From: a virus
Taxonomy: Duplodnaviria; Caudoviricetes
Length of the DNA: 30,541 nt
Direction: 5' to 3' (one strand)
IMG/VR virus record: IMGVR_UViG_3300049982_000071
Span: 1 to 30,541 of that record
Below are positions 1,800-22,650 of the stretch, piece after piece. Within the stretch, counting starts at the first letter, position 1, and every line of letters begins with the position of its first letter. The translations under genes and the position numbers were made by a program. The notes under the pieces are model-generated. The model made no database searches. It had not been told where the DNA came from and saw only the letters and a list, made by a program, of their open reading frames with translations.

Positions 1800-2255
1800 A
1801 TGGGTCTTCTCGCGGCCACTGCCTACGACCCGGCAGTAGCGGTCAGCAAAGCCACCACCGCGGCTCTGGCGATGACAGCGCTGGACACAACGAACCTGCG
1901 GCTGGCGTTCACCGTCCCGTCTGCCGGACGAGTCCTCGTCCGGTTGCAGGGGACTCTGCACGGTGCGGCGACGTTCCCGCAGATCCTGCTCGGCGTGCTC
2001 GAAGGGGCGACCGTGCGTGGCCGGGTTTCACCGACTGGCATGGTGAACGGCAACCTCGCGGCGACCACGTTCCTGACGGTCGAAGCGCAGTACACCGTCT
2101 CCGGTCTGACTCCGGCCGCCAATCTCACCTGGGACGCGGCGTACGGGGTGGAGACGCTGGTTGCGTCGACAGGTTTGAAATACGGCGGTCCAAATGACGC
2201 CACGGCCAACAATGCGTGGGGAGCGTTCCTCTTCGAGGTCTGGGATCCCAGCTAA
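1800..2255 (+). CDS. Beta-rich putative virion protein (fibre module gene 1)
   Basis: 151 aa, Ala/Thr/Gly-rich, in the structural operon. TAATG overlap with the next gene. Confidence 0.6.
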   Translation: MGLLAATAYDPAVAVSKATTAALAMTALDTTNLRLAFTVPSAGRVLVRLQGTLHGAATFPQILLGVLEGATVRGRVSPTGMVNGNLAATTFLTVEAQYTVSGLTPAANLTWDAAYGVETLVASTGLKYGGPNDATANNAWGAFLFEVWDPS

Positions 2256-3868
2256 TGCCCGGGGTTCTGCCTACCCCACTGCTGACAAGCGATGGGGGTG
2301 TTCCCGTGGGGTTCCGGTCCTCATCCAGTCTCGTCGGCGCATCCGCAGCGAACGCCGCTATACCCGTCCCAACCGGCGCGGCGATCGGGGATATCGCGGT
2401 CGTCGGCATCTACATGGAGTCGGCGGCAACGGTCACACCTCCGGCCGGGTTCACGCTCAAGGCAAGCCTGCAAACGTCTGCCACGGCCCGCGGTCGGCTG
2501 GACGTGTTCTGGAAGCGGTTGACGGCGGCCGACACGGGAACATACTCGTTCACCTTCACCAGTACGTTCCGTGCTGCCGCTTGTGGACTGTGGTCGGGGC
2601 GGGTAGCTTCCGGCGACCCGTTCGACGGGACGGTTGGGACTGCCGAGTCGACGACTACGGTCACGACGTTGAACGTTTCCACCAGCCCCACAGGGGTGAA
2701 CGGGGACGCGGTCGGGTTCTGGACGAACTTCAACGGCGGGGCCACCTTCACCGCCCCGACGAACTACACCCAGCGGCAATCGGTGTCGAGCGTCATCGCG
2801 CTGGAAACCCGCGACACGGTGGCATCTGGAAGCACCGGCAACGTCAGCGCGACTTCCTCGATCACCGACTTCATGAAGGCGTTCCTCGGTGTCCTCGCCG
2901 AGGCCAGCAGCGGGGGGAGCGTCTCAGCCGACGCGGCGCTATCCGGAACCGGAACCCTGGCCGCGACCGCTACCGGTGCGAAGCCCTCCGATGCAGCACT
3001 GGCCGGTACGGCGACGGCGACAGCCGTCGCTGCCGGGTCCAAGGCCGTCGACGCTGCCCTCTTGGGAACGGGCACGCTCACCACATCCGCGACACCGTCG
3101 AGAATCGCCGACGCTGCACTGGCTGGCACGGGCACACTCTCAACCTCGGCATCCACAGACAAGCCAGTAGCCGCCACCGCTACCGCTACTGGAACACTGG
3201 CAGCCACAGCGACCGGCGCCAAGCCCGTAGATGCGGCCCTCGCAGGCAATGGAACCCTGACGTCGACAGCCGCCTCGAGCAAGACGGTTGCGGCCACACT
3301 GTCCGCCACCGGCACCCTGACGGCATCGGCAACAGTCACCAGTTCCAATGGTGTCGACGCGGCACTCGCAGGCACCGGAACGCTCACCGCTACGGCGACC
3401 GGGACAAAGCCGGGCAACGCGGCACTCAGCGGGACCGGCACCCTGACGGCTACTGCTGCAGCCGACAAGGCCGCCTCTGGGGCTCTCGCGGGGACCGGGG
3501 TACTCACGGGCACCGCGACCCCCACAAGGGTCGCTGCGGGCAGCCTCGCGGCAACGGGAACGCTCACAGCATCTGCCGCGGTCACCACACCCGGCGGCAC
3601 TGTGACAGCGGCCCTCAACGGCACCGGAAACCTCACATCCACCGCACTGTCGGCCAAGCCGTCCGCAGCGGCACTGAACGGTACCGCGACGGCAACAGCG
3701 CAGATCGTCGTCTCCAGGTCGGTCAGCGGTGTCCTCGTCGGCACCGGGTCTCTCGTCGCCTCCGCAGACACTGCCGGCCAGGTCACGATCCGCCCGTACA
3801 CGGGCACGACAGCGCGCCCGACAGGCAGAACACCCCGGCCCTACGCCGGAACCACCAATCGACCTTAG
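2255..3868 (+). CDS. Repeat-containing fibre-like virion protein (537 aa)
   Basis: ATG at 2255 overlaps the upstream TAA. N-terminal beta-rich domain, then 14 repeats of about 20 aa (DAALAGTGTLTATA), then a C-terminal (T-x-RP)x4 tail. Confidence 0.7.
   Translation: MPGVLPTPLLTSDGGVPVGFRSSSSLVGASAANAAIPVPTGAAIGDIAVVGIYMESAATVTPPAGFTLKASLQTSATARGRLDVFWKRLTAADTGTYSFTFTSTFRAAACGLWSGRVASGDPFDGTVGTAESTTTVTTLNVSTSPTGVNGDAVGFWTNFNGGATFTAPTNYTQRQSVSSVIALETRDTVASGSTGNVSATSSITDFMKAFLGVLAEASSGGSVSADAALSGTGTLAATATGAKPSDAALAGTATATAVAAGSKAVDAALLGTGTLTTSATPSRIADAALAGTGTLSTSASTDKPVAATATATGTLAATATGAKPVDAALAGNGTLTSTAASSKTVAATLSATGTLTASATVTSSNGVDAALAGTGTLTATATGTKPGNAALSGTGTLTATAAADKAASGALAGTGVLTGTATPTRVAAGSLAATGTLTASAAVTTPGGTVTAALNGTGNLTSTALSAKPSAAALNGTATATAQIVVSRSVSGVLVGTGSLVASADTAGQVTIRPYTGTTARPTGRTPRPYAGTTNRP
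2921..3775 (+). repeat. 14 tandem ~60-bp (20-aa) coding repeats
   Basis: VSADAALSGTGTLAATATGA / KPSDAALAGTATATAVAAGS / KAVDAALLGTGTLTTSATPS and so on. Twelve units are 20 aa, one is 22 aa and one is 23 aa. Confidence 0.9.
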
Positions 3869-3876
3869 GAGCCACC

Positions 3877-3984
3877 GTGCCGGAAACCCTCCAACTGCAG
3901 GTGACCGTCACGGCTGAGGCCGAGGTCACCAAAGCAGCAGACATCGAAGCCGCCAAGTCGGAAGAGAACGAGGATGAGCGATGA
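3877..3984 (+). CDS. 35-aa peptide MPETLQLQVTVTAEAEVTKAADIEAAKSEENEDER
   Basis: RBS AGGAG at 3867-3871, GTG at 3877, ATGA overlap with the next gene. It exactly fills the gap between its neighbours. Confidence 0.7.
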   Translation: MPETLQLQVTVTAEAEVTKAADIEAAKSEENEDER

Positions 3985-5773: not shown

Positions 5774-6367
5774 ATGCCTGGTTCCACCGCAGTTCCCGTG
5801 CTCCTCACCGACCCGGGCTACCTGTTCGTCGCGCCGCTGCTCAGCACGGAGCCGACCAACACGGTCGCCGGGTCGATCTTCACCGACGCCTGGCCGGCTG
5901 CCTGGATCTCCGCCGGCGCCACGAAGGAAGGCTCGAACTTCACCTACGGGTCGAAGGTGGAGCCGATCTCGGTCGCGGAGTTCTTCGACCCGATCAAGTA
6001 CTCCACCACGGAGCGCTCCGGATCGATGGCGTTCGCGATGGCAAGCGTGACCCTGCACAACATCAAGCGCGCCCTGAACGGCGGCGTCGGCACCATCACC
6101 CCGATCTCGGGTACTGGCGCTACGGCGCTGGCGAAGTTCGAGCCCGTTGCCCCCGGCAGCGAGGTGCGGATCATGCTCGGCTGGGAGTCGACCGATGGCA
6201 CCACCCGCATCGTGATCCGCCAGGCCATCCAGGGCGGCGACATGTCGATGGAGTTCCAGAAGGCCCCGGCGTTCGCGGTTCTGCCCGCCACCTTCAACTT
6301 CGAGGTCCCGGCTGCTCTGGCTGTGTTCTCGGTCTACTCCGCCGGCGCGGCCCGGCTCGGTGCCTGA
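5774..6367 (+). CDS. Major tail (tube) protein
   Basis: Strong RBS AGGAGG. GYLFVAP...WISAGATKEGSNFTY. Lies before the chaperone and tape measure genes. Confidence 0.9.
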   Translation: MPGSTAVPVLLTDPGYLFVAPLLSTEPTNTVAGSIFTDAWPAAWISAGATKEGSNFTYGSKVEPISVAEFFDPIKYSTTERSGSMAFAMASVTLHNIKRALNGGVGTITPISGTGATALAKFEPVAPGSEVRIMLGWESTDGTTRIVIRQAIQGGDMSMEFQKAPAFAVLPATFNFEVPAALAVFSVYSAGAARLGA

Positions 6368-6918: not shown

Positions 6919-7118
6919 GCCTCGCTGATCTGTGTGACGTGGTCTACGCGATCCAGATCGAGCACACGCAGGCACTGGAGCTCGCCCTCATCTCTCGTGG
7001 GGGCGAGCTCGTTCCCGGTGAGATGACCGACAAGTTCGACGCGTGGCTCTTGGCTGAACCGGAACCGGTCGACCAGGAGAAGGCTCAACTTCTAGCCGCA
7101 TTGGGGGTCGGACCGTGA
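6765..7118 (+). CDS. Tail assembly chaperone -1 frameshift extension (gpT-like)
   Basis: The -1 frame is open: PYFAALRLLGWAASHRSYLRGRFILA...DGLSLADLCDVVYAIQ...QLLAALGVGP*. It ends in a GTGA overlap with the tape measure start and has no good start of its own. Confidence 0.7.
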   Translation, partial: PYFAALRLLGWAASHRSYLRGRFILARGGAPLEVQGSPGSRDGGLPAADGLSLADLCDVVYAIQIEHTQALELALISRGGELVPGEMTDKFDAWLLAEPEPVDQEKAQLLAALGVGP

Positions 7119-10117
7119 CCTCACTCGCGGAAGTCTGGGTAACAGTCAAGCCGGACATGGACAAGTTCGGTCCCGAGGTGAAGAAGAAGCTCACCGCGAT
7201 CGATACCCGCAAGGAAGGCTCCAGGGTCGCCGGCCGGTTCGGGGTCGGGTTCAACGGCGCCTTCGGCGGGATCGTGAAGCATTCGGCGGGGCTGTTCGTC
7301 GGGGCTTTCGCCGCGATCAAGGGCGTGCAGTTCCTGGCCGGGTTCATCAACGACGCGCGCGAGTCGGCGAAGGTCGGGCGGATCAGCGCTGCGGTGATCA
7401 AGTCCACCGGCGGGGTGGCGGGCATCACCGCCGCGCAGCTCGGGGATCTCGCGACCGCGATCTCCAACAAGACCGGCGCCGACGACGAGGCGATCCAGTC
7501 CGGGGAGAACCTGCTGGCCACGTTCACGAACGTCAGGAACGAGACCGGCAAGGGCAACGACGTCTTCAATCGCGCCACACAGGCAGCGGTCGACATGGCT
7601 GCGGCGATGAACGGTGGTGTGGTCGACGCGAACGGTTTGAAGGCCGCGAACATCCAGCTGGGCAAGGCTCTCAATGACCCGGTGAAGGGTGTCACCGCAC
7701 TGTCGAAGGTCGGTGTGTCGTTCACCCAGCAGCAGAAGGACCAGATCAAGACCCTGGTCGATTCCGGGAAGACGCTCGAGGCACAGAAGATCATCCTCGG
7801 CGAGGTCGGCAAGGAGTTCGGCGGCGCTGCTGCGGCGGCTTCTGATCCGCTGACCCGGCTGAAGACGATCGTCGGGAACCTGACCGAGCAGTTCGGCGGC
7901 TACCTGCTGCCCGTGGTGGACAAGTTCGCCACGTTCGCAGGCGACACCGTGGTGCCGAAGGTGTCTGCGTTCGCCGACGTGTTCGCGGCGAAGGTGCTCC
8001 CGAAGCTCAAGGAGTTCGGCGGCTTCATCCAAGCCGAGGTCATTCCCCGGCTCGTCCAGTTCGCCGGGTTCTTCAAGGACCAGATCCTTCCCCGCTTGCT
8101 CGACTTCGCCGGGTTCATCACCGGAAAGGTAGTCCCGGCAGTGGCCGGACTCGTGGGGAACCTGATCACGACTTTCACACCGGCGGTGAAGGACGTCTTC
8201 GGGTTCTTCAAGGCCGAAGTCCTGCCACGGCTGAAGGACTTCGCCGGCTTCCTCGGAACGTCGGTCCTGCCGAAGGTCGCCGCCATGGCCACCGCGCTGT
8301 CGAAGAACAAGGATTTCCTCGTCCCGTTCGTCGCCACGATCGTCACTCTGATCGCTGGCCTGAAAGCGTGGGCCATCGTCCAGGCAATTCTGAACGCGGA
8401 GTTGTTCGCGAACCCGATCGGCCTGGTCGTTCTGGCGATCGCCGGATTGGTTGCCGGACTCATCTACGCCTACAAGCACAGCGAGAAGTTCCGCGACATC
8501 TTGCAGGGTGCGTTCCACGGGATTCAGGCCGCGGCGCAGGCGTTCGCGCCACTGGTGAAGGCCGCGATCGACATCGTCATCGGTGTCTTCTCGCTGTGGT
8601 GGAACTACTACGCGAAGCCGATCCTCACCTTGTTCAGGAACATGCTGGAAGTGGTGTGGAAGGCGGCGCAGAAGTTCGGCCAGATCGTCGCCGCCGGGTT
8701 CAATGCGATCAAGGAACCGGCTGCTGCCGCGATCAAGTTCGTGGTCGGGAAGTTCCTGGACTTCGTGGGGACGATGCTCGACGCTGCGGCGAAGGCGTTC
8801 GGCTGGGTTCCGGGATTGGGGCCGAAGCTGAAGGCCGCGGCGAAGGAGTTCGGGAAGTTCCGCGACAACGTGAACGCTGCCCTGAATGGTGTGAAGGACC
8901 AGACGATCACGGTCACGGCGAAGCTGAATGCCGCGAACGTCAACAACAAGAACGCCACCGACCGCCGGCTTCCACCTGCCGGGTTCGCGGACGGCGGCGG
9001 GGTGTTCGGCGGCGAACGCGGCAAGGACTCCGTCCCGGCGTTGCTGATGCCGGACGAGCACGTGTGGACCACCAGGGAAGTTGCTGCTGCCGGTGGTCAC
9101 ACGGCGATGAAGAAGCTGCGGCGCGCTGCACTGGCCGGCGAACTGAACGGGTACGCCGCAGGTGGAGCAGTTCAGGTCGGGGTCAAGCCACGCACTGCGA
9201 ACGTCGACAGGTTCGCCAAGGATGTTGCGGCCCGCTCCATCGATCTGGTCCGTCCGCAGGCGCAGGCCCTGGCGAACCAGATGTTCGACGTACCGGGAGG
9301 ACCTCCAGGGTCGCGGCGGTCGTTCCGTGGGGTCACGCTGAACCAGCGGACCATCAGCATGCTGCTCAACGCAGAGCGGATCCTCGGTGCGGTCTTCCAC
9401 ATCACGCAGGGGTCGTACTCGACGCGGGTTGCTGCGTCCGGTTCCACCCATGCGGGTGGTGGCGCGATGGACACTGACGGTCCGCGCGGATGGAACACTG
9501 CTGTGCGGGCTTTGCGGGCTGCCGGGTTCGCGGCCTGGCATCGCACCCCTTCGCAAGGTCCGTGGCACGACCACATCCATTCGATCGCCCTCGGGGACAC
9601 CAGCGCGTCACCTGCAGCGAAGGCGCAGATGGCGTCTTTCCGCCGCGGAGGCGACGGTCTGGGGCACGGCATGGCGGCTGGCGGAAAGGTCGGCTCGTAC
9701 GCCGAAGGTGCCTGGAAGATCCTCACCGATCACCTGGCGATGGTGCACAAGGACGAGATGGTTGTCCCGGCTGTGAGTGCAGGCTTCCTGCGCAAGTTGT
9801 TGCCAAACCTCAACAACAGCCGGGTCCGTTCGAAGCTGCACCAGCTCCACGCAGACCACCAGGCACATCTCGCGCACGTGTCACATCTGAACCACGTGAA
9901 CGACATCGACCGCTTCACCCGGTCGAGCCTGGGGACGGTGGGTGCGGACATGACCGACAACGGCGTCACCGGAACCGTGAGGCTGCACCCGGACACGGTC
10001 CGGGAAGTCGCGCGGGCGTTGGCCGGCGAGATCTCTGACAATCCGCCGCAGGTCTACCTGGATAACCGCCGCCTCGATTCGGCGCTGTCTCGTTCAGCTA
10101 TCGGCAGGGGGTTCTAA
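7115..10117 (+). CDS. Tape measure protein with C-terminal M15-like Zn-peptidase domain
   Basis: 1000 aa, Ala/Gly-rich. QLGKALNDP, NPIGLVVLAIAGLVAGLIYAYK, FADGG...DSVPALLMPDEHV. THAGGGAMD...HIH metal motif. Confidence 0.95.
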   Translation: MTSLAEVWVTVKPDMDKFGPEVKKKLTAIDTRKEGSRVAGRFGVGFNGAFGGIVKHSAGLFVGAFAAIKGVQFLAGFINDARESAKVGRISAAVIKSTGGVAGITAAQLGDLATAISNKTGADDEAIQSGENLLATFTNVRNETGKGNDVFNRATQAAVDMAAAMNGGVVDANGLKAANIQLGKALNDPVKGVTALSKVGVSFTQQQKDQIKTLVDSGKTLEAQKIILGEVGKEFGGAAAAASDPLTRLKTIVGNLTEQFGGYLLPVVDKFATFAGDTVVPKVSAFADVFAAKVLPKLKEFGGFIQAEVIPRLVQFAGFFKDQILPRLLDFAGFITGKVVPAVAGLVGNLITTFTPAVKDVFGFFKAEVLPRLKDFAGFLGTSVLPKVAAMATALSKNKDFLVPFVATIVTLIAGLKAWAIVQAILNAELFANPIGLVVLAIAGLVAGLIYAYKHSEKFRDILQGAFHGIQAAAQAFAPLVKAAIDIVIGVFSLWWNYYAKPILTLFRNMLEVVWKAAQKFGQIVAAGFNAIKEPAAAAIKFVVGKFLDFVGTMLDAAAKAFGWVPGLGPKLKAAAKEFGKFRDNVNAALNGVKDQTITVTAKLNAANVNNKNATDRRLPPAGFADGGGVFGGERGKDSVPALLMPDEHVWTTREVAAAGGHTAMKKLRRAALAGELNGYAAGGAVQVGVKPRTANVDRFAKDVAARSIDLVRPQAQALANQMFDVPGGPPGSRRSFRGVTLNQRTISMLLNAERILGAVFHITQGSYSTRVAASGSTHAGGGAMDTDGPRGWNTAVRALRAAGFAAWHRTPSQGPWHDHIHSIALGDTSASPAAKAQMASFRRGGDGLGHGMAAGGKVGSYAEGAWKILTDHLAMVHKDEMVVPAVSAGFLRKLLPNLNNSRVRSKLHQLHADHQAHLAHVSHLNHVNDIDRFTRSSLGTVGADMTDNGVTGTVRLHPDTVREVARALAGEISDNPPQVYLDNRRLDSALSRSAIGRGF
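7889..8293 (+). repeat. Nine 15-aa amphipathic repeats in the tape measure
   Basis: FIQAEVIPRLVQFAG / FFKDQILPRLLDFAG / FFKAEVLPRLKDFAG and so on, with Pro every 15 residues. Confidence 0.85.
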
Positions 10118-11536
10118 GTGGCGACCTGGCAGTTCGTGACGGACTTCCTCACCTCCACCCCCACCGTGAGCCTGGACCTGAACAGCTTCGCTTCGGGGCT
10201 ACAGGTGACTGACGGGTACAACCTGGATCCGCCGAAGTACGAGAAGGGGTATGCGGCCAGCACTCTGCGGCACGGCAGTGTCCCTGTGCGTTCGGTGGCG
10301 CCGAACCGGACCTTGGTCATCCCGATCCAGGTCAACAAGGCGGACCGGGATGCGGCGGCGACCGCGATCGAGCTGCTCGGTCAGCAGATCGCGGTCGACA
10401 ACTTCCTCAAGGTCCAGTTCGGTTCCACGCCCGTGTTCTTTCGGACGTTCGCGGACCCTGACTATGCCTGGGAGGTCAAGAAGACCCTGACTCACGAGTC
10501 TCGGATCGTGCTGTCGCTGGAGGCCGAACCGTTCGCCTACGGCCCCCGGGTCACGGTCACGGGTTCACCGTTCACTGTGTCGAACAACCCGGCGAACGCC
10601 ACGAACCCGTGCAGGTTCGACGTCACCGGCGTCCTGGGTGATGTGCCAACCCCGCTGTTCATGCTGTTCACCTCGACGGGCGGTACGGGCGCGCCTTCTG
10701 GTGTGACGAGCAAGTGGAGCCACATCGCGACCCGCCGCAGGGGCACGCCAGGCAACTACTCGAACGTCATCCAGGGCGAGAACATGACCCAGGGTTTGAA
10801 TGCCACGGTCACCGCTGACGCCACCATGTCCGGTGGGTCGAAGTCGCGGATCTCGTTCGGTACCACGATCAACTCGCTGCGGCTCAGTGACACGTTCCCG
10901 GAGAACGGGACGGCGACGCTCGAGGCCCGCGGTGAGTACCAGGTCTACGGGCACTTCTCGAAGACTGTTGCGGGTGACGTCATCACCGTCCAGCTGGGCT
11001 ATGGCGCATCCTCGACAGCGCCGGTGCTGAACGACACGGTGACTCTTCCTGCGGTGACGGGTCCGTTCACGACGCTGCTGGGGAAGGTCCCGGTTCCGCC
11101 GTGGTCGGACCCTGTGAGCCACGGTTACGCGGGCGGCGCACAGTTGAAGGTGCTGCTGGCGTTCGTGGGTCTGTATGCAGCGCGCGTCTCCGGGAGCGGT
11201 TCGCTGGACGTGGACTACCTGTACTTCGTGCCTGCCGATGACCGGACTCTGATTGTCCGGTGGCCGTCGACGGACACGACGTACGCGATCGACGGCACCA
11301 CCTCCGAGGGTGGGTCGGTGTATGCGCTGAACACGAGCGTGGACACGATCCAGACGATCGCTTCGCCGGCTGCGATCACGGGTGGGGGCGGGTTCCCGGA
11401 GTTGACTCCGGGGGCAACGAACCGGATCCATTTCCTGCGCAACGTGGACCCGACCGGTGTGACGGATCCGGTGACGGACACGACCACGATCCAGGCCTAC
11501 TACTGGCCGCGCTGGCGTGAAGCTGTCCGACCGTAG
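10118..11536 (+). CDS. Minor tail protein, distal tail (Dit)-like, probably with an inserted carbohydrate-binding domain
   Basis: Immediately after the tape measure. NRTLVIPI, LEAEPFAYG, GDVPTP, C-terminal LTPGATN...YWPRW. The middle region QGENM...ADATMSGG...GEYQVY...DVDYLYF is CBM-like. Confidence 0.75.
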   Translation: MATWQFVTDFLTSTPTVSLDLNSFASGLQVTDGYNLDPPKYEKGYAASTLRHGSVPVRSVAPNRTLVIPIQVNKADRDAAATAIELLGQQIAVDNFLKVQFGSTPVFFRTFADPDYAWEVKKTLTHESRIVLSLEAEPFAYGPRVTVTGSPFTVSNNPANATNPCRFDVTGVLGDVPTPLFMLFTSTGGTGAPSGVTSKWSHIATRRRGTPGNYSNVIQGENMTQGLNATVTADATMSGGSKSRISFGTTINSLRLSDTFPENGTATLEARGEYQVYGHFSKTVAGDVITVQLGYGASSTAPVLNDTVTLPAVTGPFTTLLGKVPVPPWSDPVSHGYAGGAQLKVLLAFVGLYAARVSGSGSLDVDYLYFVPADDRTLIVRWPSTDTTYAIDGTTSEGGSVYALNTSVDTIQTIASPAAITGGGGFPELTPGATNRIHFLRNVDPTGVTDPVTDTTTIQAYYWPRWREAVRP

Positions 11537-11545
11537 GCGTACTCT
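11524..11545 (+). promoter_or_regulatory. PafBC/RecA-NDp-like promoter for the moron
   Basis: TGTCCG-N10-TACTCT versus consensus TGTCGG-N10-TANNNT. Confidence 0.5.
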
Positions 11546-11555
11546 GAACGTAAGT

Positions 11556-11608
11556 GTCCCGGCACGGTGGTAGCCGCCCGGGACTGACCGACCTACCGAG
11601 AGGCCGAT
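11556..11608 (+). promoter_or_regulatory. Two-hairpin 5' leader, second hairpin masking the RBS
   Basis: Stem GTCCCGG/CCGGGAC, then CTGAC, then CGACCT-ACCGAG-AGGCCG. Same design as 16349-16406. Confidence 0.6.
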
Positions 11609-11836
11609 ATGACAAACGATAGCAACGATGAATCCAACGCCCGCGCGAAGGCTGCCCTCCAAGCGGCGGGTTACCGCGCCTGGCACCGTCCCGTCCCACC
11701 TGATGCATCATGGACCCGCCACGTCCATGACATCAACGACCCCGAGACTCGCGAGGCGCTCCGGGACTGGCTACGGTGCACCTGTCGCGAGACTCTGGAC
11801 CCGGAGTGCCTGAAGCATGGCGAGGCTAAGTCATGA
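11609..11836 (+). CDS. Moron ORF1 (75 aa): fragment resembling the tape-measure peptidase C-half plus a CxC..CxxH motif
   Basis: RBS GAGAGG. ALQAAGYRAWHR...WTRHVH and CTCRETLDPECLKHG. Confidence 0.7.
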   Translation: MTNDSNDESNARAKAALQAAGYRAWHRPVPPDASWTRHVHDINDPETREALRDWLRCTCRETLDPECLKHGEAKS

Positions 11837-12174
11837 GCGCCAAGACTCTAGCGTCACCTGACAGGTACTACATCCCTGACGATGGCGGTCATGTCTACGA
11901 CCGCTGGGGTGGATACCACATCGCCCGAGATCTCTGGGAACGGCGGACGTCCGAAGGCAGAGTCGACTGGGCGAACCACGACTTCCAGCTACGCGAGTTC
12001 GTCATAGAGGACGGGATCCCTGCGCAGTGGCGTCGCCGCCGAGCGGTGTGCTTGCGCTGCGGTGAGAAGCGGATGGTCGGTGGATCGATCAGGCCTGGCG
12101 ACCGGACGCTGAATGCCGAGTGGTGTGTGCGGCCCACTCTCTGGCAGCGGCTGAAGGATGTGCTCAAGCCGTGA
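11833..12174 (+). CDS. Moron ORF2, hypothetical with CxxC
   Basis: ATGA and GTGA overlaps on both sides. H...CLRC...C. Confidence 0.7.
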   Translation: MSAKTLASPDRYYIPDDGGHVYDRWGGYHIARDLWERRTSEGRVDWANHDFQLREFVIEDGIPAQWRRRRAVCLRCGEKRMVGGSIRPGDRTLNAEWCVRPTLWQRLKDVLKP

Positions 12175-12353
12175 GCGAGTTCGCGCCGCCGCCGTTGCGA
12201 CCAGACCAGTCACTCTTCTGGGTGATGGCGATCAGGAATGGCCAGCTCTACGCCGCGCCCCTGGGTACCCCGTACGACCTGGATGTGTCCGAGGCGTGGA
12301 TCCGCGTGAACTCGACCGATGACCTGCGCGGATTCTTCGGGGCGGGAGCATGA
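12171..12353 (+). CDS. Moron ORF3 (60 aa), resembles a tail-tube N-terminal motif
   Basis: GTG at 12171 overlaps the upstream TGA. GQLYAAPLGTP...EAWI. Confidence 0.65.
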   Translation: MSEFAPPPLRPDQSLFWVMAIRNGQLYAAPLGTPYDLDVSEAWIRVNSTDDLRGFFGAGA

Positions 12354-12667
12354 GCGATGCAGACGTACGCCGTGAATTCCTGTGGGCCAGGTACGGCAAG
12401 CCTGAGAGGGCAGACGCAGCGACCGCACTGGAGACCCTTGGTGTCACCGACGTCAGGCCTGAGGATGTAGCGGCGTTCCTCTACCGCGACCGGGAATCCG
12501 CCGACGCATACGCCGCGGCTAATCTGGAAAATCAAGGCCTCACGGTCCTCGGCACCTACGAGGTTGGCAGCGGTGTCATCGGAGTCCTGGACCTGCGGCC
12601 TGAGATCGCCAGACTTGAAGATCATCTGCATCAGACCCGGGCGCGCGACCCGCACGACGGCGCATAA
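12350..12667 (+). CDS. Moron ORF4, hypothetical (105 aa)
   Basis: ATGA overlap with the upstream gene, RBS GGGAG. Confidence 0.7.
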   Translation: MSDADVRREFLWARYGKPERADAATALETLGVTDVRPEDVAAFLYRDRESADAYAAANLENQGLTVLGTYEVGSGVIGVLDLRPEIARLEDHLHQTRARDPHDGA

Positions 12668-12687
12668 CTCAACACTAGAAACCTACT

Positions 12688-12724
12688 CGAAAGCCCTGGC
12701 CTTACCGCCGGGGCTTTCGCATGT
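12688..12724 (+). terminator. Terminator-like hairpin closing the moron
   Basis: CGAAAGCCCTGGC-CTTACC-GCCGGGGCTTTCG, 13-bp stem with one G-U pair. Confidence 0.65.
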
Positions 12725-12730
12725 CTGGGG

Positions 12731-14398
12731 GTGCCGATGACCGCGCTCAACGTCAGCACCGTCCCCCTCGCCGTCCGCGTCTCGAACGCGCGCGTGGATC
12801 AGATGCTCACCGGCTACCTGCACGGCGACCTGCACTTCACCCAGACCGACCCTGGCGGCTACCGGGCCGCGTCTTTCGTGGTGTCGCAGAAGCTCGGGTT
12901 CCGCACCGACATGATCCAGCCGTACAGCCGGATCTACATCTACAACCAGCGCAACGGCGACACCGTCTTCGAAGGCGACGTCTCCCACCCCGGCAGAAGC
13001 GTCAGCGACGACGGAGCACTGCTCGAGGTCCAGGTCGAGGGCGGCGTCGAACGGCTCAACGACTGGTCCGGTCAGCGGATCTTCATTGACCGCGACATGA
13101 CCGCCTGGACCCTGTCGAACCAGTCCACCAGAGGCGCACTGAGTGCTACCGGAGATGATCTCGGCGGGTCAGGCACCGATTCGTTGACGCTGTCGTTCCC
13201 GAACAGCTTCCACGTCGAGCCCAACTACCGCAGCGAAGTCATCTATAACCGGATCCGGGAAGCCGGTCAGGAACTCGGCCGCATCAACTTCTCCGGCGAC
13301 TTCGGCCTCACCCACGCGAGCTGGCTCGCCCGACTGCTTGTGTCCCCACCCTCAACAGTGTCCCGCGCTGTCGCCGCCAACCTGGGAGGCTTCGGAGGTT
13401 CCGGTGCCGTCGTTGGTGGTGGTATCCCGACCGGCGCGAACGTGGCGTTCCTGCAGTTCATCTGGACCGGCATCGCGTCGAACACCGGCACCGCCGACAC
13501 TGTGTGGGCGTCGCTGTTCGACCCGGTCGTAGTCGTTCGGCTGCACCTGAAGGATGGCTCGTTCAGGACCACCGGTTATGTCGATTGGCTCACTGCCGAC
13601 CAGGTGTGGGAGGACATGCTCGGCGACGTCCTCGCGAGCACGTTCGACGGCTCCAACGCGTCCCTCGATCTGGGCACCGGCTACAACATCACCCAGCTCG
13701 CCTACCCGGACGGCACCACCGCCATGCAGGTAGCCGACGAGCTGATGAAGTTCGAACCCGGCTGCACCTATCTGGTCGGTGCCAGTAACCCGATCAACAA
13801 CAAGTACTCGCTGACATGGATGGCACGCTCGGACGTTCCCCGGTACGAGTTCTCCACATGGTCCGACGAGTACGACGGCGGCGCACAATCCGTCGACCAG
13901 TACAACGAGGCCGTCACCCGGTGGCGTGCACCGACCGGTGAGGTCAGGTCCACCGTCACCACCCAGTCAGTTCCGGAGATGGCCGCGGCAGGCAGGACCA
14001 GACGGTTCTACCAGGACCTCACCGACACAGTCTCGAGCGACGCGAACGCGACCCAGGCGAACGCGACCGTGCTGAACGATCACCGGTTTCCGCTGAACGG
14101 CGGACAGGTCACTGTGTCCCGCCCTGTCGTGGACTTGTGGACGGGCCGCACGGTGCAGCCGTTCGAGATCCAGCCCGGCTACATCGCCCGCATCGTCGGC
14201 GTGAACCCGTCCAGGGACGCACTCAACAACTCGCCCCGCAACGGCTCGAGCCTGTGCCGCATCGTCACCACCGACTACAGCGCCGGCTCGCATTCGGCGT
14301 CGATCGCTCTCGACTCGGTGCCGTACTCGATGGCCCGCGCGATCAGGAACGCCAAGGTCAAGCCGCTCCCGCGATACCTGCGGAACCCATTCCTGTAA
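12731..14398 (+). CDS. Minor tail protein (tail tip/hub-like); start may be ATG 12737
   Basis: 555 aa. FTQTDPGGYRAASF...TVFEGDV...VEGGVERLND pattern of actinophage post-Dit tail proteins. Confidence 0.8.
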   Translation: MPMTALNVSTVPLAVRVSNARVDQMLTGYLHGDLHFTQTDPGGYRAASFVVSQKLGFRTDMIQPYSRIYIYNQRNGDTVFEGDVSHPGRSVSDDGALLEVQVEGGVERLNDWSGQRIFIDRDMTAWTLSNQSTRGALSATGDDLGGSGTDSLTLSFPNSFHVEPNYRSEVIYNRIREAGQELGRINFSGDFGLTHASWLARLLVSPPSTVSRAVAANLGGFGGSGAVVGGGIPTGANVAFLQFIWTGIASNTGTADTVWASLFDPVVVVRLHLKDGSFRTTGYVDWLTADQVWEDMLGDVLASTFDGSNASLDLGTGYNITQLAYPDGTTAMQVADELMKFEPGCTYLVGASNPINNKYSLTWMARSDVPRYEFSTWSDEYDGGAQSVDQYNEAVTRWRAPTGEVRSTVTTQSVPEMAAAGRTRRFYQDLTDTVSSDANATQANATVLNDHRFPLNGGQVTVSRPVVDLWTGRTVQPFEIQPGYIARIVGVNPSRDALNNSPRNGSSLCRIVTTDYSAGSHSASIALDSVPYSMARAIRNAKVKPLPRYLRNPFL

Positions 14399-14421
14399 GG
14401 ACAATAATGAACGGGGACACC

Positions 14422-15282
14422 ATGGGACGCGTCTTTTTTTATGCACCTCATCCCGACGACGAGACGCTCTCTGCAGGTCTGGCACTGATCTACTACATCG
14501 CAGCCGGGTTTGATGTGCACCTGGTCTCCATGACGCTCGGAGACGCGCTCGGTGTGGCGAACACCCTCAACGGCGCGGCCAACGGAACCCCGCTGGTCTG
14601 CTCCACACCGAGCGATCACCCCTACATCCATAACCCAGTCCGGGAAGGGTACGCGCCGCTCACCGTTGAGGACATCGGTGTGGCCCGTACAGCTGAGGCA
14701 AGGTCGGCTCTGGGTGCGATGGCGATGATCCCACCCAACACGGGAGTCACCCCGGGCCAGGTGTTCCACCACGTAGTGGGTCTGCACGACGGCTTCGGCG
14801 CACCTGGGCAGGGTTCGTCCACGGCGCCGGTGACCCGTGAGGGGATCGACGCGGCGAAGGCGGCGATGCTGCCGTTCATCCAGGACTACCCGAACAGCTT
14901 CCACTACACGATGTCGCCCGCGGACCACCACCACGACCACGCGGCCTGCGGGATCGCGCTACGGGAGATCAAGGCAGAGAACCCGACCCTGCTCGGCGCA
15001 CCGCGGTTCTTCGTGTCCAGGCTGTACTGGGCGAGCTCGCAGCCTGACGGCCACTACCAGCAGGACCTGCTGGACGAAGCTGCAGGGACTCTTGCCTGGT
15101 TCAACTACGCCGGCGCGAACTACGACCGGTACGTGGCGTGGCTGAAGAACCAGGTCCAGAAGGCGTACCGCCACTGGAACCCTGCAGCCGGCGCGTACGG
15201 GATCGGCTACCACCAGGTGACCTCGCAGTTCGCGTCCAACCTGGGACCGTCTGTCGTCGTCGGGAATCTCTGGCACGGCTGA
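14422..15282 (+). CDS. PIG-L/LmbE-family Zn-dependent N-deacetylase
   Basis: VFFYAPHPDDETLSAG (PHPDDE), VSMTLGD, RTAEARSALGAM, DHHHDH (HxDH). RBS GGGGA before ATG 14422; alternative ATG 14407. Confidence 0.9.
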   Translation: MGRVFFYAPHPDDETLSAGLALIYYIAAGFDVHLVSMTLGDALGVANTLNGAANGTPLVCSTPSDHPYIHNPVREGYAPLTVEDIGVARTAEARSALGAMAMIPPNTGVTPGQVFHHVVGLHDGFGAPGQGSSTAPVTREGIDAAKAAMLPFIQDYPNSFHYTMSPADHHHDHAACGIALREIKAENPTLLGAPRFFVSRLYWASSQPDGHYQQDLLDEAAGTLAWFNYAGANYDRYVAWLKNQVQKAYRHWNPAAGAYGIGYHQVTSQFASNLGPSVVVGNLWHG

Positions 15283-16406: not shown

Positions 16407-16835
16407 ATGAGTGACCTTATAACCCGCTTCCTGGCCAAGACAGAGCCGGGGCCGGGTGACTGCTGGACGTGGATCGCACACAAGGATAAGGACGGCTACG
16501 CCAGGTTCCAGGTGAACCGGAAGGCGCGCCGTGCTTACCGCTGGTCCTACGAGTACCACATCGGCCCCATCCCGGACGGCTTGGTTCTCGACCACCTGTG
16601 CCGCAATCGCGCCTGCGTGAATCCCTGGCACCTGGAGCCAGTAACCAATCTCGTCAACATCCAGCGTGGAGAGCGCCCGAATCGCGAGGCCTGTATTCAT
16701 GGCCACCCGTTGGATGAGGCAAATACCTACTGGCCAAAGAATCGCGGAGGTCAGCGGGTCCGCGCCTGTCGGGAGTGCAACCGACTAGCGGTTCGGCGCT
16801 ATCGCGAGAAGCGATCACAGAGAGCGGTGAGTTGA
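16407..16835 (+). CDS. HNH endonuclease (free-standing, homing-type) with C-terminal Zn finger
   Basis: CWTW...GYARF...AYRWSY...LDHLCRNRACVNPWHLEPVTNLVN and CIHGH...RACRECN. Confidence 0.95.
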   Translation: MSDLITRFLAKTEPGPGDCWTWIAHKDKDGYARFQVNRKARRAYRWSYEYHIGPIPDGLVLDHLCRNRACVNPWHLEPVTNLVNIQRGERPNREACIHGHPLDEANTYWPKNRGGQRVRACRECNRLAVRRYREKRSQRAVS

Positions 16836-16837
16836 AG

Positions 16838-17635
16838 ATGGCGGGAACCCTCTGGATATCCGGCGCTGAACGGATTACACCGTCGTCGCCTGGTGGAACT
16901 CCGAGCTCTACCGAAGCCGCACGCCCACCGCGGGTTGTGTGGCACACCACTGAGGCACCGTCGGGTGACCCGAAGATGTTCCAGGCGATGATCAACGTCC
17001 TGAAGTCGAAGGGTGCGGAGCCGCAGGTTCTGTGGGATCCGCTGACGGACAGGCTCGGGCAGTTCATGCCACTGGACCACACCGGGCGGGCATTGAAGAA
17101 CGATGGCTCCTATCGTTCGAACCGGATCGGGAAGGTCTGCATCCAGATCGAGGTCATCGGCTACTCGAAGACCCCATTCACCGGCTACTGGAAACCTGGC
17201 CCGAACTTCCGTGCGCTCATGGCGGCCATTCGGTCCTGGGGGATCCCGGACGTGTTCCCGATGGGCAACCCGCCCAAGTATCCGGGTGGCAGTGTCCGTG
17301 ACCGCAACATCTGGCTCACCAAGGCTGGCCACTTCTGCCACGCCAACATCCCCGGCAACGACCACGGCGACCCGGGCGCGATCAGCGTCTCCGCGTTGTT
17401 CGCTGCCGCGCCCACCGCGCCGGCCAAACCGCCCGCGAAACCAGTCACCCCATCCACGGAGGACGAGATGTCTGCTAAGGACGTCGAAGACGGCATCGAC
17501 AACTACATGCAGCGGTACTGGAGCAAGGGCGGTACGGGCGGCATCAACCGCGCTGAGGACGAGGCGTGGCAGAAGGCCATGCTCGACGGCCTCAACCGTC
17601 TCGCTGCCGCTGTCGAAGCGCTGAAGGGCCAGTGA
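16838..17635 (+). CDS. Endolysin, N-acetylmuramoyl-L-alanine amidase
   Basis: VVWHTTE, IQIEVIG, GHFCHANIPGNDHGDPG Zn-amidase motifs, a Pro/Ala linker and a short helical C-terminus. Confidence 0.9.
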   Translation: MAGTLWISGAERITPSSPGGTPSSTEAARPPRVVWHTTEAPSGDPKMFQAMINVLKSKGAEPQVLWDPLTDRLGQFMPLDHTGRALKNDGSYRSNRIGKVCIQIEVIGYSKTPFTGYWKPGPNFRALMAAIRSWGIPDVFPMGNPPKYPGGSVRDRNIWLTKAGHFCHANIPGNDHGDPGAISVSALFAAAPTAPAKPPAKPVTPSTEDEMSAKDVEDGIDNYMQRYWSKGGTGGINRAEDEAWQKAMLDGLNRLAAAVEALKGQ

Positions 17636-21450: not shown

Positions 21451-21768
21451 TCACGACAGGACCCACTGAACAGCGGTGTAGGACTCCAGCACAATCTTGG
21501 CGGCACGGCGATACCGGAGCAGGGTGTCCAGGTTGCCGTCTTCCCACTCACCGACCTCGTTGTCTGCGAACAGCGCATGCGCTGCCGCCTCGATCTCCAG
21601 CGCGGACGGTGTGCGCCACTCTTGGTCCGCCGCCTTGTATCCGGTCTCCCAGCCTTCCTCGAAGGCTCCCTGCGTGGTCGAGAACTCCAGCACCTGGTCC
21701 TCAGCTTCGAGTTCGGCAACGAGTGCCTGGTAGGCCTGGTTCGCTCTAGCGTTCAGCGTGCTCATCAC
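21451..21768 (-). CDS. Hypothetical protein (105 aa)
   Basis: GTGA overlap with the Ltp gene stop. IEAAAHALF...YRRAAKIVL. Confidence 0.7.
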   Translation of the reverse strand: MMSTLNARANQAYQALVAELEAEDQVLEFSTTQGAFEEGWETGYKAADQEWRTPSALEIEAAAHALFADNEVGEWEDGNLDTLLRYRRAAKIVLESYTAVQWVLS

Positions 21769-22436
21769 AGTCCCGCCTTCGTCACGCCGTACACAGCCTG
21801 CTTGTGGGTGAAGCCCTCACCAGCGTCCGACTCGAGCTGGCGGATCAGACCCGACCGGGAGAAGTGCGACATCTTCAAGTAGGACTCCGCCGACTTCGCT
21901 GCCTGCTCGTTCCAGTTCACCTTCACGTGGTCCACGGCGAACGTCGCATCCGCCACCGAGAACCCCTCGCCCGCATCCGACGACAGCTGCCGGATCAGAC
22001 CCTTGCGGCTGAATGCCGTGAACGACAGGTACGACTCGGCTGAGCCGATCGCCTGCACCTGGGACGCTGTCATCGGCGGCGCCGGCTTGTGCGTCACCTT
22101 CGGGGAAGGCTGCGTGGTGGGTTTGGCGGCAGACGGCTTGGTCGTCGGCGTGGGACCGTTGTCGACCGGCGTACCCGCCTGGGACGTCACGGTCACCGGC
22201 GCCTTCGCGTCCTGGCTTGACAGTGCGCCCCCCACGAGTGCCGTGCAGCCGGCCATCACGGCGATGATGCCGACGAACACGCCGAGGATGATGTTGCGGA
22301 CGGTGTGCTTCTTCGGCGGCTTGGGTGCCTGGTGCTGACCGCCCTGCCACAACGGGCTGTTGCCGACCACGCTGTCTGGCGGTACCGGGTCGCCGGGTCG
22401 GTAGGTGTTGCGGTCTGGCTGGCCGTAGTCACTCAT
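21765..22436 (-). CDS. Ltp-family membrane-anchored superinfection exclusion protein
   Basis: RBS GGGGAG, ATG 22436. TM segment, P/T linker, two repeats AESYL...FSRxGLIRQLxSDAGEGF...A..AV. Confidence 0.85.
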   Translation of the reverse strand: MSDYGQPDRNTYRPGDPVPPDSVVGNSPLWQGGQHQAPKPPKKHTVRNIILGVFVGIIAVMAGCTALVGGALSSQDAKAPVTVTSQAGTPVDNGPTPTTKPSAAKPTTQPSPKVTHKPAPPMTASQVQAIGSAESYLSFTAFSRKGLIRQLSSDAGEGFSVADATFAVDHVKVNWNEQAAKSAESYLKMSHFSRSGLIRQLESDAGEGFTHKQAVYGVTKAGL

Positions 22437-22439
22437 GAT

Positions 22440-22650
22440 TGGGTCTCCCCCTGTCTGGTGGGAGGTCCTGCCGCTCTCCTGCCGCTCCGACATGAGAAGG
22501 ATTCCTCCCGAACTTGTGGTCTGAGCGTGAAACCTGGGCTCATTCGGGTCCTCGCCTAGAGGGTGGATCTTCTCCGGCATGGAAGTCTGAGTCGCAGGTC
22601 AGAGGCTCTTACGGGTTCAACATAGCATCAAACGGGTTCATTTGGGAACA
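22440..22650. other. Probable attP region
   Basis: Non-coding gap downstream of the integrase. GGGTTCA-type boxes at 22536, 22546, 22613, 22634 and 22644. CGCAGGTCAGAGG motif. Crossover core not identifiable. Confidence 0.5.

Follow-up and report, generated by a model that had tools for sequence, protein, structure and literature searches.

A cassette gene of a temperate siphovirus resembling the C-terminal part of a tape-measure peptidase domain: a probable derivative and a tentative decoy

Introduction

How does a short gene lodged between two tail genes come to resemble one half of an enzyme domain encoded about 2 kb upstream, and what could such a half do without the other? This question is raised by ORF1, the first of four coupled genes that separate Dit from the following tail gene in a virus whose DNA is contained in soil metagenome runs, the best of which may represent the sample of origin. 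The window analyzed here is the whole virus record, 30,541 bases long and approximately 72% complete. The original prediction, made from this sequence, held that ORF1 repeats the C-terminal half of the peptidase motif of the tape measure without being a recent duplicate, and that it is either a repurposed enzyme fragment (a mimic or an inhibitor) or a new zinc-binding mini-fold.

The window encodes a capsid, connectors, a tail tube, a tape measure, Dit, lysis genes, and an integrase, and the virus is a temperate siphovirus. Among the records matching its integrase, 865 of 1541 are Mycobacterium or Gordonia phages, a count that also reflects the make-up of the collection; together with the gene style, these matches point to an actinobacterial host. 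No RNA dataset occurs among the runs listed as containing the DNA of the window. Several further genes deserve mention in their own right. A 596-aa gene without a PHROG match lies amid the head-tail connector genes (2194-3984, +), a region in which short repeats occur. A PIG-L family de-N-acetylase (14416-15282, +; PF02585, E 2e-11) directly follows the tail genes, and the gene at 16775-17635 (+), with no Pfam match at E 1, is by its position a likely endolysin. Adjoining the integrase, a membrane-anchored Ltp-family protein with two PF07553 repeats (21765-22580, -; E 1e-35) likely serves superinfection exclusion. The features on which the following sections concentrate are collected in Table 1.

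Table 1. Coordinates of the tail genes, the cassette, and related cassette genes (window positions unless a locus is named).
Feature	Position	Strand	Remarks
Tail tube protein	5774..6367	+	before tape measure; PF25681 E 1.6e-4, below cut-off
Tape measure protein	7115..10117	+	1000 aa; PHROG matches
Tape-measure peptidase domain	9296..9676	+	residues 728-854; H779-x6-D786, H820-x-H822; predicted LAS/M15 fold
Dit	10118..11536	+	left flank; phrog_33
TAnnnT hexamer	11540..11545	+	same place in 5/5 leaders
Leader hairpin, then conserved GACCGA block	11556..11584	+	z -1.55 only
ORF1 ribosome-binding site GAGAGG	11598-11603
ORF1	11609..11836	+	75 aa; cassette gene no. 1; ORF2 start overlapped by ORF1 stop
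ORF1 codons 1-6 (MTNDSN)	11609..11626	+	part of cassette leader, outside the peptidase homology
ORF1 residues 12-56	11642..11776	+	probably homologous to C-terminal part of LAS-type peptidase domain
CxC-x7-CxxH tail of ORF1	11777..11818	+	absent from orthologue P0171; accessory
ORF2	11833..12174	+	113 aa, no family; in soil contigs also directly after this leader, with ORF1 missing
ORF3	12171..12353	+	60 aa; weakly resembles tail tube N-terminus
ORF4	12350..12667	+	105 aa, no clear family
Terminator-like hairpin at the cassette end	12688..12719	+	z -2.86, 2/200 shuffles
Next tail gene	12731..14398	+	right flank; adjoins Dit in L005, L006, L011
P0174, G003 cassette gene	L087:1117-1518 = L003 about 8520-8920	-	shortened tail tube homologue
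P0175, G011 cassette gene	L091:1108-1506	-	ORF3-like half fused to zinc-ribbon half

The predicted peptidase domain of the tape measure

In the alignment of the domain, H779 and D786 are invariant in 23 of 23 rows, and H820 and H822 are present in 120 of 120 domains; the role of the latter two, as the HxH histidines, is presumed here. The domain model (pLDDT 87.5) finds exclusively LAS proteins among its matches with Z of at least 5 (13/13), including Hedgehog, a Zn DD-peptidase, VanX/VanY, MepA, and Ply500. The best of them reaches Z 7.3 (rmsd 2.7, 90 aligned residues), and the 13 best range from 5.2 to 7.3; these scores are middling, and the Foldseek rows are weak, none having E <0.001. Searches of Pfam, NCBIfam, and PDB yielded no sequence match for the domain family. 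The same domain is found in endolysin-like phage proteins and, in P0118, fused to peptidoglycan-binding repeats, and it is predicted to act as a cell-wall peptidase.

The domain is rare, occurring in one of 50,697 phage records, yet it lies only about 2 kb from ORF1. Among the closest tape measures it is 68-87% identical, although other parts of these proteins diverge. As an observation in its own right, 9296-9676 and the loci L001-L086 make up an unannotated LAS-type family common to tape measures, endolysin-like proteins, and bacterial proteins. The genome G042 (locus L081), which is unpublished, contributes one row to the diverse family profiles and one of 33 profile matches. It is also the center of a 401-genome sample of its class, three members of which were matched (one full family domain and two spurious hits); no conclusion rests on this genome.

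ORF1 and the C-terminal part of the domain

The two peptides that first suggested the likeness (11654-11734 in ORF1, 9509-9586 in the tape measure) translate exactly as quoted, with 9 of 12 residues identical in the first block and W..H.H.I common to both. No shuffle attains their local score of 77, neither among 5000 compared with the tape measure nor among 500 compared with the window in six frames (Gumbel p ~2e-4). On a profile of 119 domains built without the window's own copy, ORF1 obtains 26.0 bits, the best of 20,000 shuffles 9.9. A distant profile, comprising only 33 family members less than 55% identical to the window's own domain, gives 23.5 bits (best shuffle 10.0), and a third profile score of 23.9 bits likewise stands against a shuffle maximum of about 10. 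Among natural six-frame segments (7,049), no non-member exceeds 7.7 bits. Profile-profile comparison by HHalign of the ORF1 family with the domain family yields 95% over 44 columns (0/150 column shuffles) and extends the match to residues 12-56, beyond the block originally noticed. Conversely, a profile of ORF1 and its orthologue P0171 recovers the domain in 33 of 42 records, all picked for carrying it. Since the match had originally been picked by eye, chance matches were simulated as well: 295 of 5000 with an equal pair score attain the profile score of ORF1, so that the profile by itself adds only modest evidence.

The codons have diverged, as had been stated: 9 of the 13 shared residues other than Trp are encoded by another codon, and the identity by codon position is 0.59/0.66/0.41. 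Moreover, 53 of 170 other family segments (some of them redundant) outscore the phage's own tape measure against ORF1. Both results indicate a likeness to a family rather than a local repeat, and the special tie of ORF1 to its own tape measure that had been assumed is not borne out, the domains of other phages being as close.

ORF1 would cover a helix, two strands, and the last helix bearing the HxH motif, with the W-x-R strand preceding it, and retains G21, W25, R27, W35, H38, and H40. The first His, the N-terminal helix, and a strand are missing. As proposed, the H-x6-D motif is absent, with no His upstream, and for this reason ORF1 is predicted to be inactive. D4 was considered as a retained zinc-ligand Asp and rejected: it falls in the Asp column because the first five or six codons travel with the leader. 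A separate N-terminal half is not encoded in any of 790 six-frame segments of the window, bearing in mind that the record is 72% complete. On the shared stretch, ORF1 stands near the bottom of the family (20.8 bits, with 41 of 42 members scoring above). It deviates at near-invariant positions (R18 to Q/S, A23 to R/K, G33, and the small residue 41 to D) and lacks the conserved PSQGP loop, R801, and the final Q/GxGL motif of the family. The polar swaps presumably reflect adaptation to the missing N-terminal half. With considerable confidence, ORF1 is regarded as homologous to the zinc peptidase domain and likely a true derivative; as far as the alignments tell, it would correspond to the C-terminal part, long diverged, in agreement with the original prediction.

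The family-guided model of ORF1 is middling (pLDDT 72, pTM 0.52), its best fold match has Z 3.4, and fold searches with it matched no fold, with no LAS protein among the rows; the best ESM Atlas values (0.76-0.78) are uninformative, and a single-sequence model has pLDDT 0.52. No match to ORF1 was obtained in Pfam (at E 1), PHROGs, NCBIfam, or PADLOC, and the five cassette proteins compared with PADLOC 2023 have none either. Neither ORF1 nor P0171 has a hydrophobic segment, ORF1 has no export signal, and its net charge is -2. These properties bear on a partnership of ORF1 with the Ltp-family protein, which had been put forward earlier and in which ORF1 would act on the Ltp protein of its own phage as an antidote or a decoy. 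Such a gene is indeed present in the window, and Ltp repeats are reported, in the accessible text of PMC3952083, to bind a tape measure in its C-terminal region. However, the Ltp protein is membrane-anchored and would act at the cell surface, and the target described in the same text is a positively charged end of the tape measure. The link is therefore unsupported, and this role is held to be extremely improbable.

An orthologue and probable selection on the core

Phmmer searches with ORF1 returned five matches: ORF1 itself, three repeat artefacts, and P0171, a 66-aa protein on four ENA contigs (E 4e-16) that is 62% identical to ORF1 over 60 columns. P0171 retains G-Y-[RK]-A-W-x-R-P, W-T-R-H-x-H-D, and N-D-P-E-T-R-E-A-L. 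Although found without reference to the tape measure, it scores 23.4 bits on the distant profile. When descendants of ORF1 are simulated at equal identity, only 42 of 3000 (32/3000 with rate variation) retain a score of this type, and P0171 counts as independent support for homology. A stand-alone homologue keeping the motif thus exists beside the significance over shuffled controls, the two points on which the original prediction had been staked. Further relatives were not obtained: the word-indexed protein database, cultured phages, and a metagenome scan hold no homologue of ORF1 beyond itself, and pattern scans of IMG/VR with ORF1, P0171, and their alignment returned the protein itself or nothing. 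A half-domain profile search listed 46 small proteins; the 28 examined among the 45 others are all unremarkable members of the family, truncated or short, and none resembles ORF1.

The likeness might still be accidental or convergent, a common helix-Gly-strand-Trp-loop-Trp pattern in an unrelated small protein. The 295 of 5000 simulated matches, the very many windows scanned, and the ORF1 fold matches devoid of LAS proteins would agree with such an origin, and TIR domains are similar: P0171 has a faint match to TIR_2 (12.8 bits, E 0.17, cut-off 28). A full five-strand TIR domain was nevertheless rejected for both proteins, which have only 66-75 residues; the score is below the Pfam cut-off, and ORF1 gives none. 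The faint match illustrates how common the helix-Gly-strand-Trp pattern is. Against chance stand the score of P0171 with its rarity among simulated descendants, the HHalign result, the detection of the domain in 33 of 42 records, the low natural background, the lack of a Pfam match for ORF1, and the vicinity of a rare domain, which together make an accidental likeness improbable.

Alternatively, ORF1 could be a relic in decay, without function, left from a lysin or tape-measure gene that had once been captured. The family has two members, and many broken fragments of the peptidase-domain family exist in databases. This contrasts with an orthologue at 62% identity that has an intact frame and conserved columns of its own, with the start signal and coupled stop of ORF1, and with simulations of neutral decay from the phage's own tape-measure block, in which only 63 of 1661 matched runs keep an ORF1-type score. 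A relic is therefore very improbable, and the core of ORF1 is very probably under selection. Reads gave no dN/dS estimate, as no contig in four runs spans ORF1.

The orthologue also bears on the Cys-rich end of ORF1. The CxC-x7-CxxH motif announced in the original prediction is present and is the only one of its kind in the window, in favor of a new zinc mini-fold defined by it. P0171, however, has none of the four ligands (0/4), and cassette genes swap Cys-rich modules (see P0175 below). Comparison of the two proteins indicates that the tail is an add-on; the motif itself stands, and a mini-fold built on it is hardly credible.

The cassette and its leader

ORF1 and the genes coupled to it occupy a slot that is empty in L005, L006, and L011. 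The right-hand flanking gene is taken, by its position, to be Tal-like. Four of the 24 related records also carry this leader. Its hairpin stem remains paired in G003 despite changed letters and is also present in G009, G010, and G011. The TAnnnT hexamer is likely the -10 element of a cassette promoter, although a sigma-70 consensus scan found none. Neither Rfam, exact scans, nor cultured phages contain the leader, and a search with a loose pattern returned mostly noise. A hairpin similar to the closing one follows the G003 and G011 cassettes, whereas a scan for terminators with T-runs did not report 12688..12719.

The DNA of ORF1 codons 1-6 leads into other genes in soil contigs. P0182 starts with MTDD and then continues as ORF3, and the G003 cassette gene starts with MTD. 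Across the joint of the empty site (window 11517-12760), soil contigs are variable, with empty, ORF2-first, and ORF3-last forms, and forms in which leader and terminator flank other genes; these joints come from metagenomes at 80% likeness, and the sides of some are short. By its arrangement, with insertion between genes that are adjacent in relatives, a promoter-like leader, and a terminator, the cassette is moron-like. As a separate observation, the conserved leader (11540-11626, with L087, L089, L090, and L091) combines TAnnnT, the hairpin, GACCGA, the ribosome site, and the first codons, and could serve as a regulatory RNA or mark a boundary of recombination.

Cargo of sister cassettes

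The cassette of G003 has the same leader, terminator, and junction as the window and encloses P0174, a 133-aa homologue of the tail tube. P0174 matches the L002 tube with E 1e-10 and reaches 43 bits on a profile of five tube sequences (best of 5000 shuffles, 10.4). The PF25681 score, below the cut-off for the tube of the window, is above it for the G003 copy. An internal stretch and the final 40 residues of the tube are missing. G003 retains a full tube gene besides P0174, to which P0174 is least similar (71 vs 79-116), and it is the only one of nine records with this tube family to contain a second copy. ORF3 may be related to the tube as well: HHalign gives 22% (E 1e-3) with none of 200 column shuffles, and 17 of 5000 shuffles on the tube profile. 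The N-terminal half of P0175, like ORF3, weakly resembles the tube N-terminus, and its zinc-ribbon half also stands alone (P0176, P0177). ORF2, ORF4, the G009/G010 gene, and the C-terminal half of the G011 gene match no structural protein; comparisons of cassette genes with Dit, the next tail gene, and gene 4727 were covered by pairwise searches only. In total, two of seven cassette genes or modules clearly, and one weakly, appear to be derived from tail proteins. On the opposite strand, just after the G009/G010 cassette gene (L090:583-1308, +; L089), lies a gene that is, by its motif, presumably methyltransferase-like.

The truncated tube homologue lends indirect support to the view of ORF1 as a repurposed fragment or mimic, one of the options named originally. 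It also speaks against a related possibility, that ORF1 is a true homologue with a new job, i.e. a mini-domain binding metal, a peptidoglycan precursor, or a host protein via the old active-site face. The best-conserved stretch of ORF1 and P0171 (HD.NDPETREAL) is the pair's own and lies outside the family consensus, and H38, H40, D41, and D44 could conceivably bind metal, both points in favor of such a role. A second derivative of a tail protein in a sister cassette would then be left unexplained, and a new job of this kind is considered rather unlikely.

Both derivatives could instead be prophage weapons. ORF1 made in the lysogen would pair with the tape-measure peptidase domain of related phages and thereby jam the assembly of their tails or the entry of their DNA, which is considered unlikely; the truncated tube of G003 would, within the same scheme, cap rival tubes, also an unlikely event. 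The moron anatomy of the cassette and the parts missing from P0174 suit a weapon, and Tab is, in the excerpted text of PMC10884400, a late-operon moron that targets tape measures. ORF1 and P0174 are no closer to the copies of their own phages than to those of others, which fits a weapon against rivals and traffic of cassettes equally. On the other hand, the phage's own tape measure has the same domain, closely similar to that of its relatives, and would be co-expressed, with no antidote evident, and the polar residues 23 and 41 of the alignment would argue against re-pairing with an N-terminal half.

A proposed decoy for tail-sensing defense

On the best reading, ORF1 would be a cytoplasmic, non-catalytic mimic of a tail protein that takes part in phage conflict, with a decoy placed ahead of a blocker of rival tails. 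Specifically, it may be a cytoplasmic decoy for a host or prophage factor that recognizes the peptidase domain of the tape measure, a mechanism that, taken as a whole, is put forward tentatively and with less than even confidence. Several defenses recognize components of the tail, according to the portions of PMC11364771 available. The decoy was chosen by analogy with DSAD1, an anti-DSR2 protein that mimics the tail tube and occupies DSR2 (PMC10973363, as its accessible sections describe). As it shows no export signal, ORF1 would be expected to encounter tail proteins, or sensors of them, within the cytoplasm. Because active-site residues are kept and the surface facing the N-terminal half seems to have been shed, a free-standing bait fits better than a piece that re-pairs.

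Such a decoy may go back to a piece of a tape-measure-type peptidase gene that the cassette took up behind its leader, from which the piece would have gained its start and first codons. The fragment would then have adapted to the loss of its N-terminal half, with polar residues (R/K23, D41) replacing small near-invariant ones, while keeping the W-x-R / W-x-x-H-x-H face. The protein would be made from the cassette promoter in the lysogen and upon infection, and also by read-through together with the tail genes. It could thereby compete with newly made tape measure protein for a sensor or a blocker, in the way that DSAD1 competes with the tail tube.

Several points lower the weight of this proposal. 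The PSQGP loop, R801, and Q/GxGL, which a faithful mimic might keep, are lost; four of the seven cassette genes or modules match no structural protein; and the ORF1 family consists of two sequences. Literature searches brought up no defense factor for the tape-measure peptidase domain.

Relation to known systems

LAS/M15 peptidases (Zn DD-peptidase 1lbu, VanX/VanY, Ply500, the Hedgehog N-domain) share H-x6-D, HxH, and a LAS-like model with the tape-measure domain. ORF1 retains the HxH motif and presumably the helix-strand-strand-helix unit bearing it, whereas it has neither the first His nor the Asp motif and lacks the helix and the strand on the N-terminal side; as a defining motif is missing, ORF1 is not a member of the LAS enzymes. 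A LAS-fold peptidase domain within a tape measure is also present in mycobacteriophage TM4 (MT3/VldE), and the spacing of the VldE ligands H301, D308, and H375, as given in the accessible text of PMC11667670, equals that of the window domain. It differs in that no Pfam or PDB sequence match links it to the window domain and in that the VldE fold ranks 15th (Z 4.7). A stand-alone half of MT3 was not described in literature searches aimed at other questions.

Like DSAD1, ORF1 is a small phage protein resembling a tail protein. From what the available text says, DSAD1 mimics the tube at a binding site, whereas ORF1 is probably homologous in sequence to one part of a tape-measure domain; the truncated tube gene of G003 is a closer parallel. 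Tab/anti-Tab of phage JBD26 likewise involves a small late-operon moron tied to the tape measure (PMC10884400). In the part of that source at hand, Tab is not described as a tape-measure fragment; no antidote pair was identified here, and the likeness is one of description. With morons in the sense of Hendrix (definition from an extract of PMC4378225), the cassette shares the insertion between genes adjacent in relatives, the promoter-like leader, and the terminator. It differs by a reusable leader donating first codons, by up to four coupled genes, and by cargo apparently derived from tail proteins. Searches of titles and the starts of abstracts, with few subscription journals among them, returned no truncated paralogues or fragments of tail proteins acting as decoys. 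Morons and mimics are known; within the literature so covered, morons stocked with truncated homologues of tail proteins were not found described.

Implications

The origin of small accessory and counter-defense genes of phages is largely open. Here, two and possibly three of them are traced to tail proteins of this phage group, and one of these bears a signature of selection after truncation. Such origins yield a searchable pattern, i.e. short genes with homology to a portion of a virion protein encoded in the same genome. It is a speculative and rather doubtful proposition that, in this group of temperate actinophages, a reusable promoter-terminator cassette within the tail genes captures pieces of such genes (the half of the tape-measure peptidase, the tube without an internal stretch and its end, and perhaps the tube N-terminus), from which decoys or dominant-negative weapons evolve, and that it points to an undescribed defense sensing the tape-measure peptidase. 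If the products are decoys, they would name the surfaces that host defenses watch and could serve as baits for those defenses; if they are blockers, they would form a class of superinfection weapons predictable from sequence. If true, this would be a general route by which a virion gene turns into a gene of conflict.
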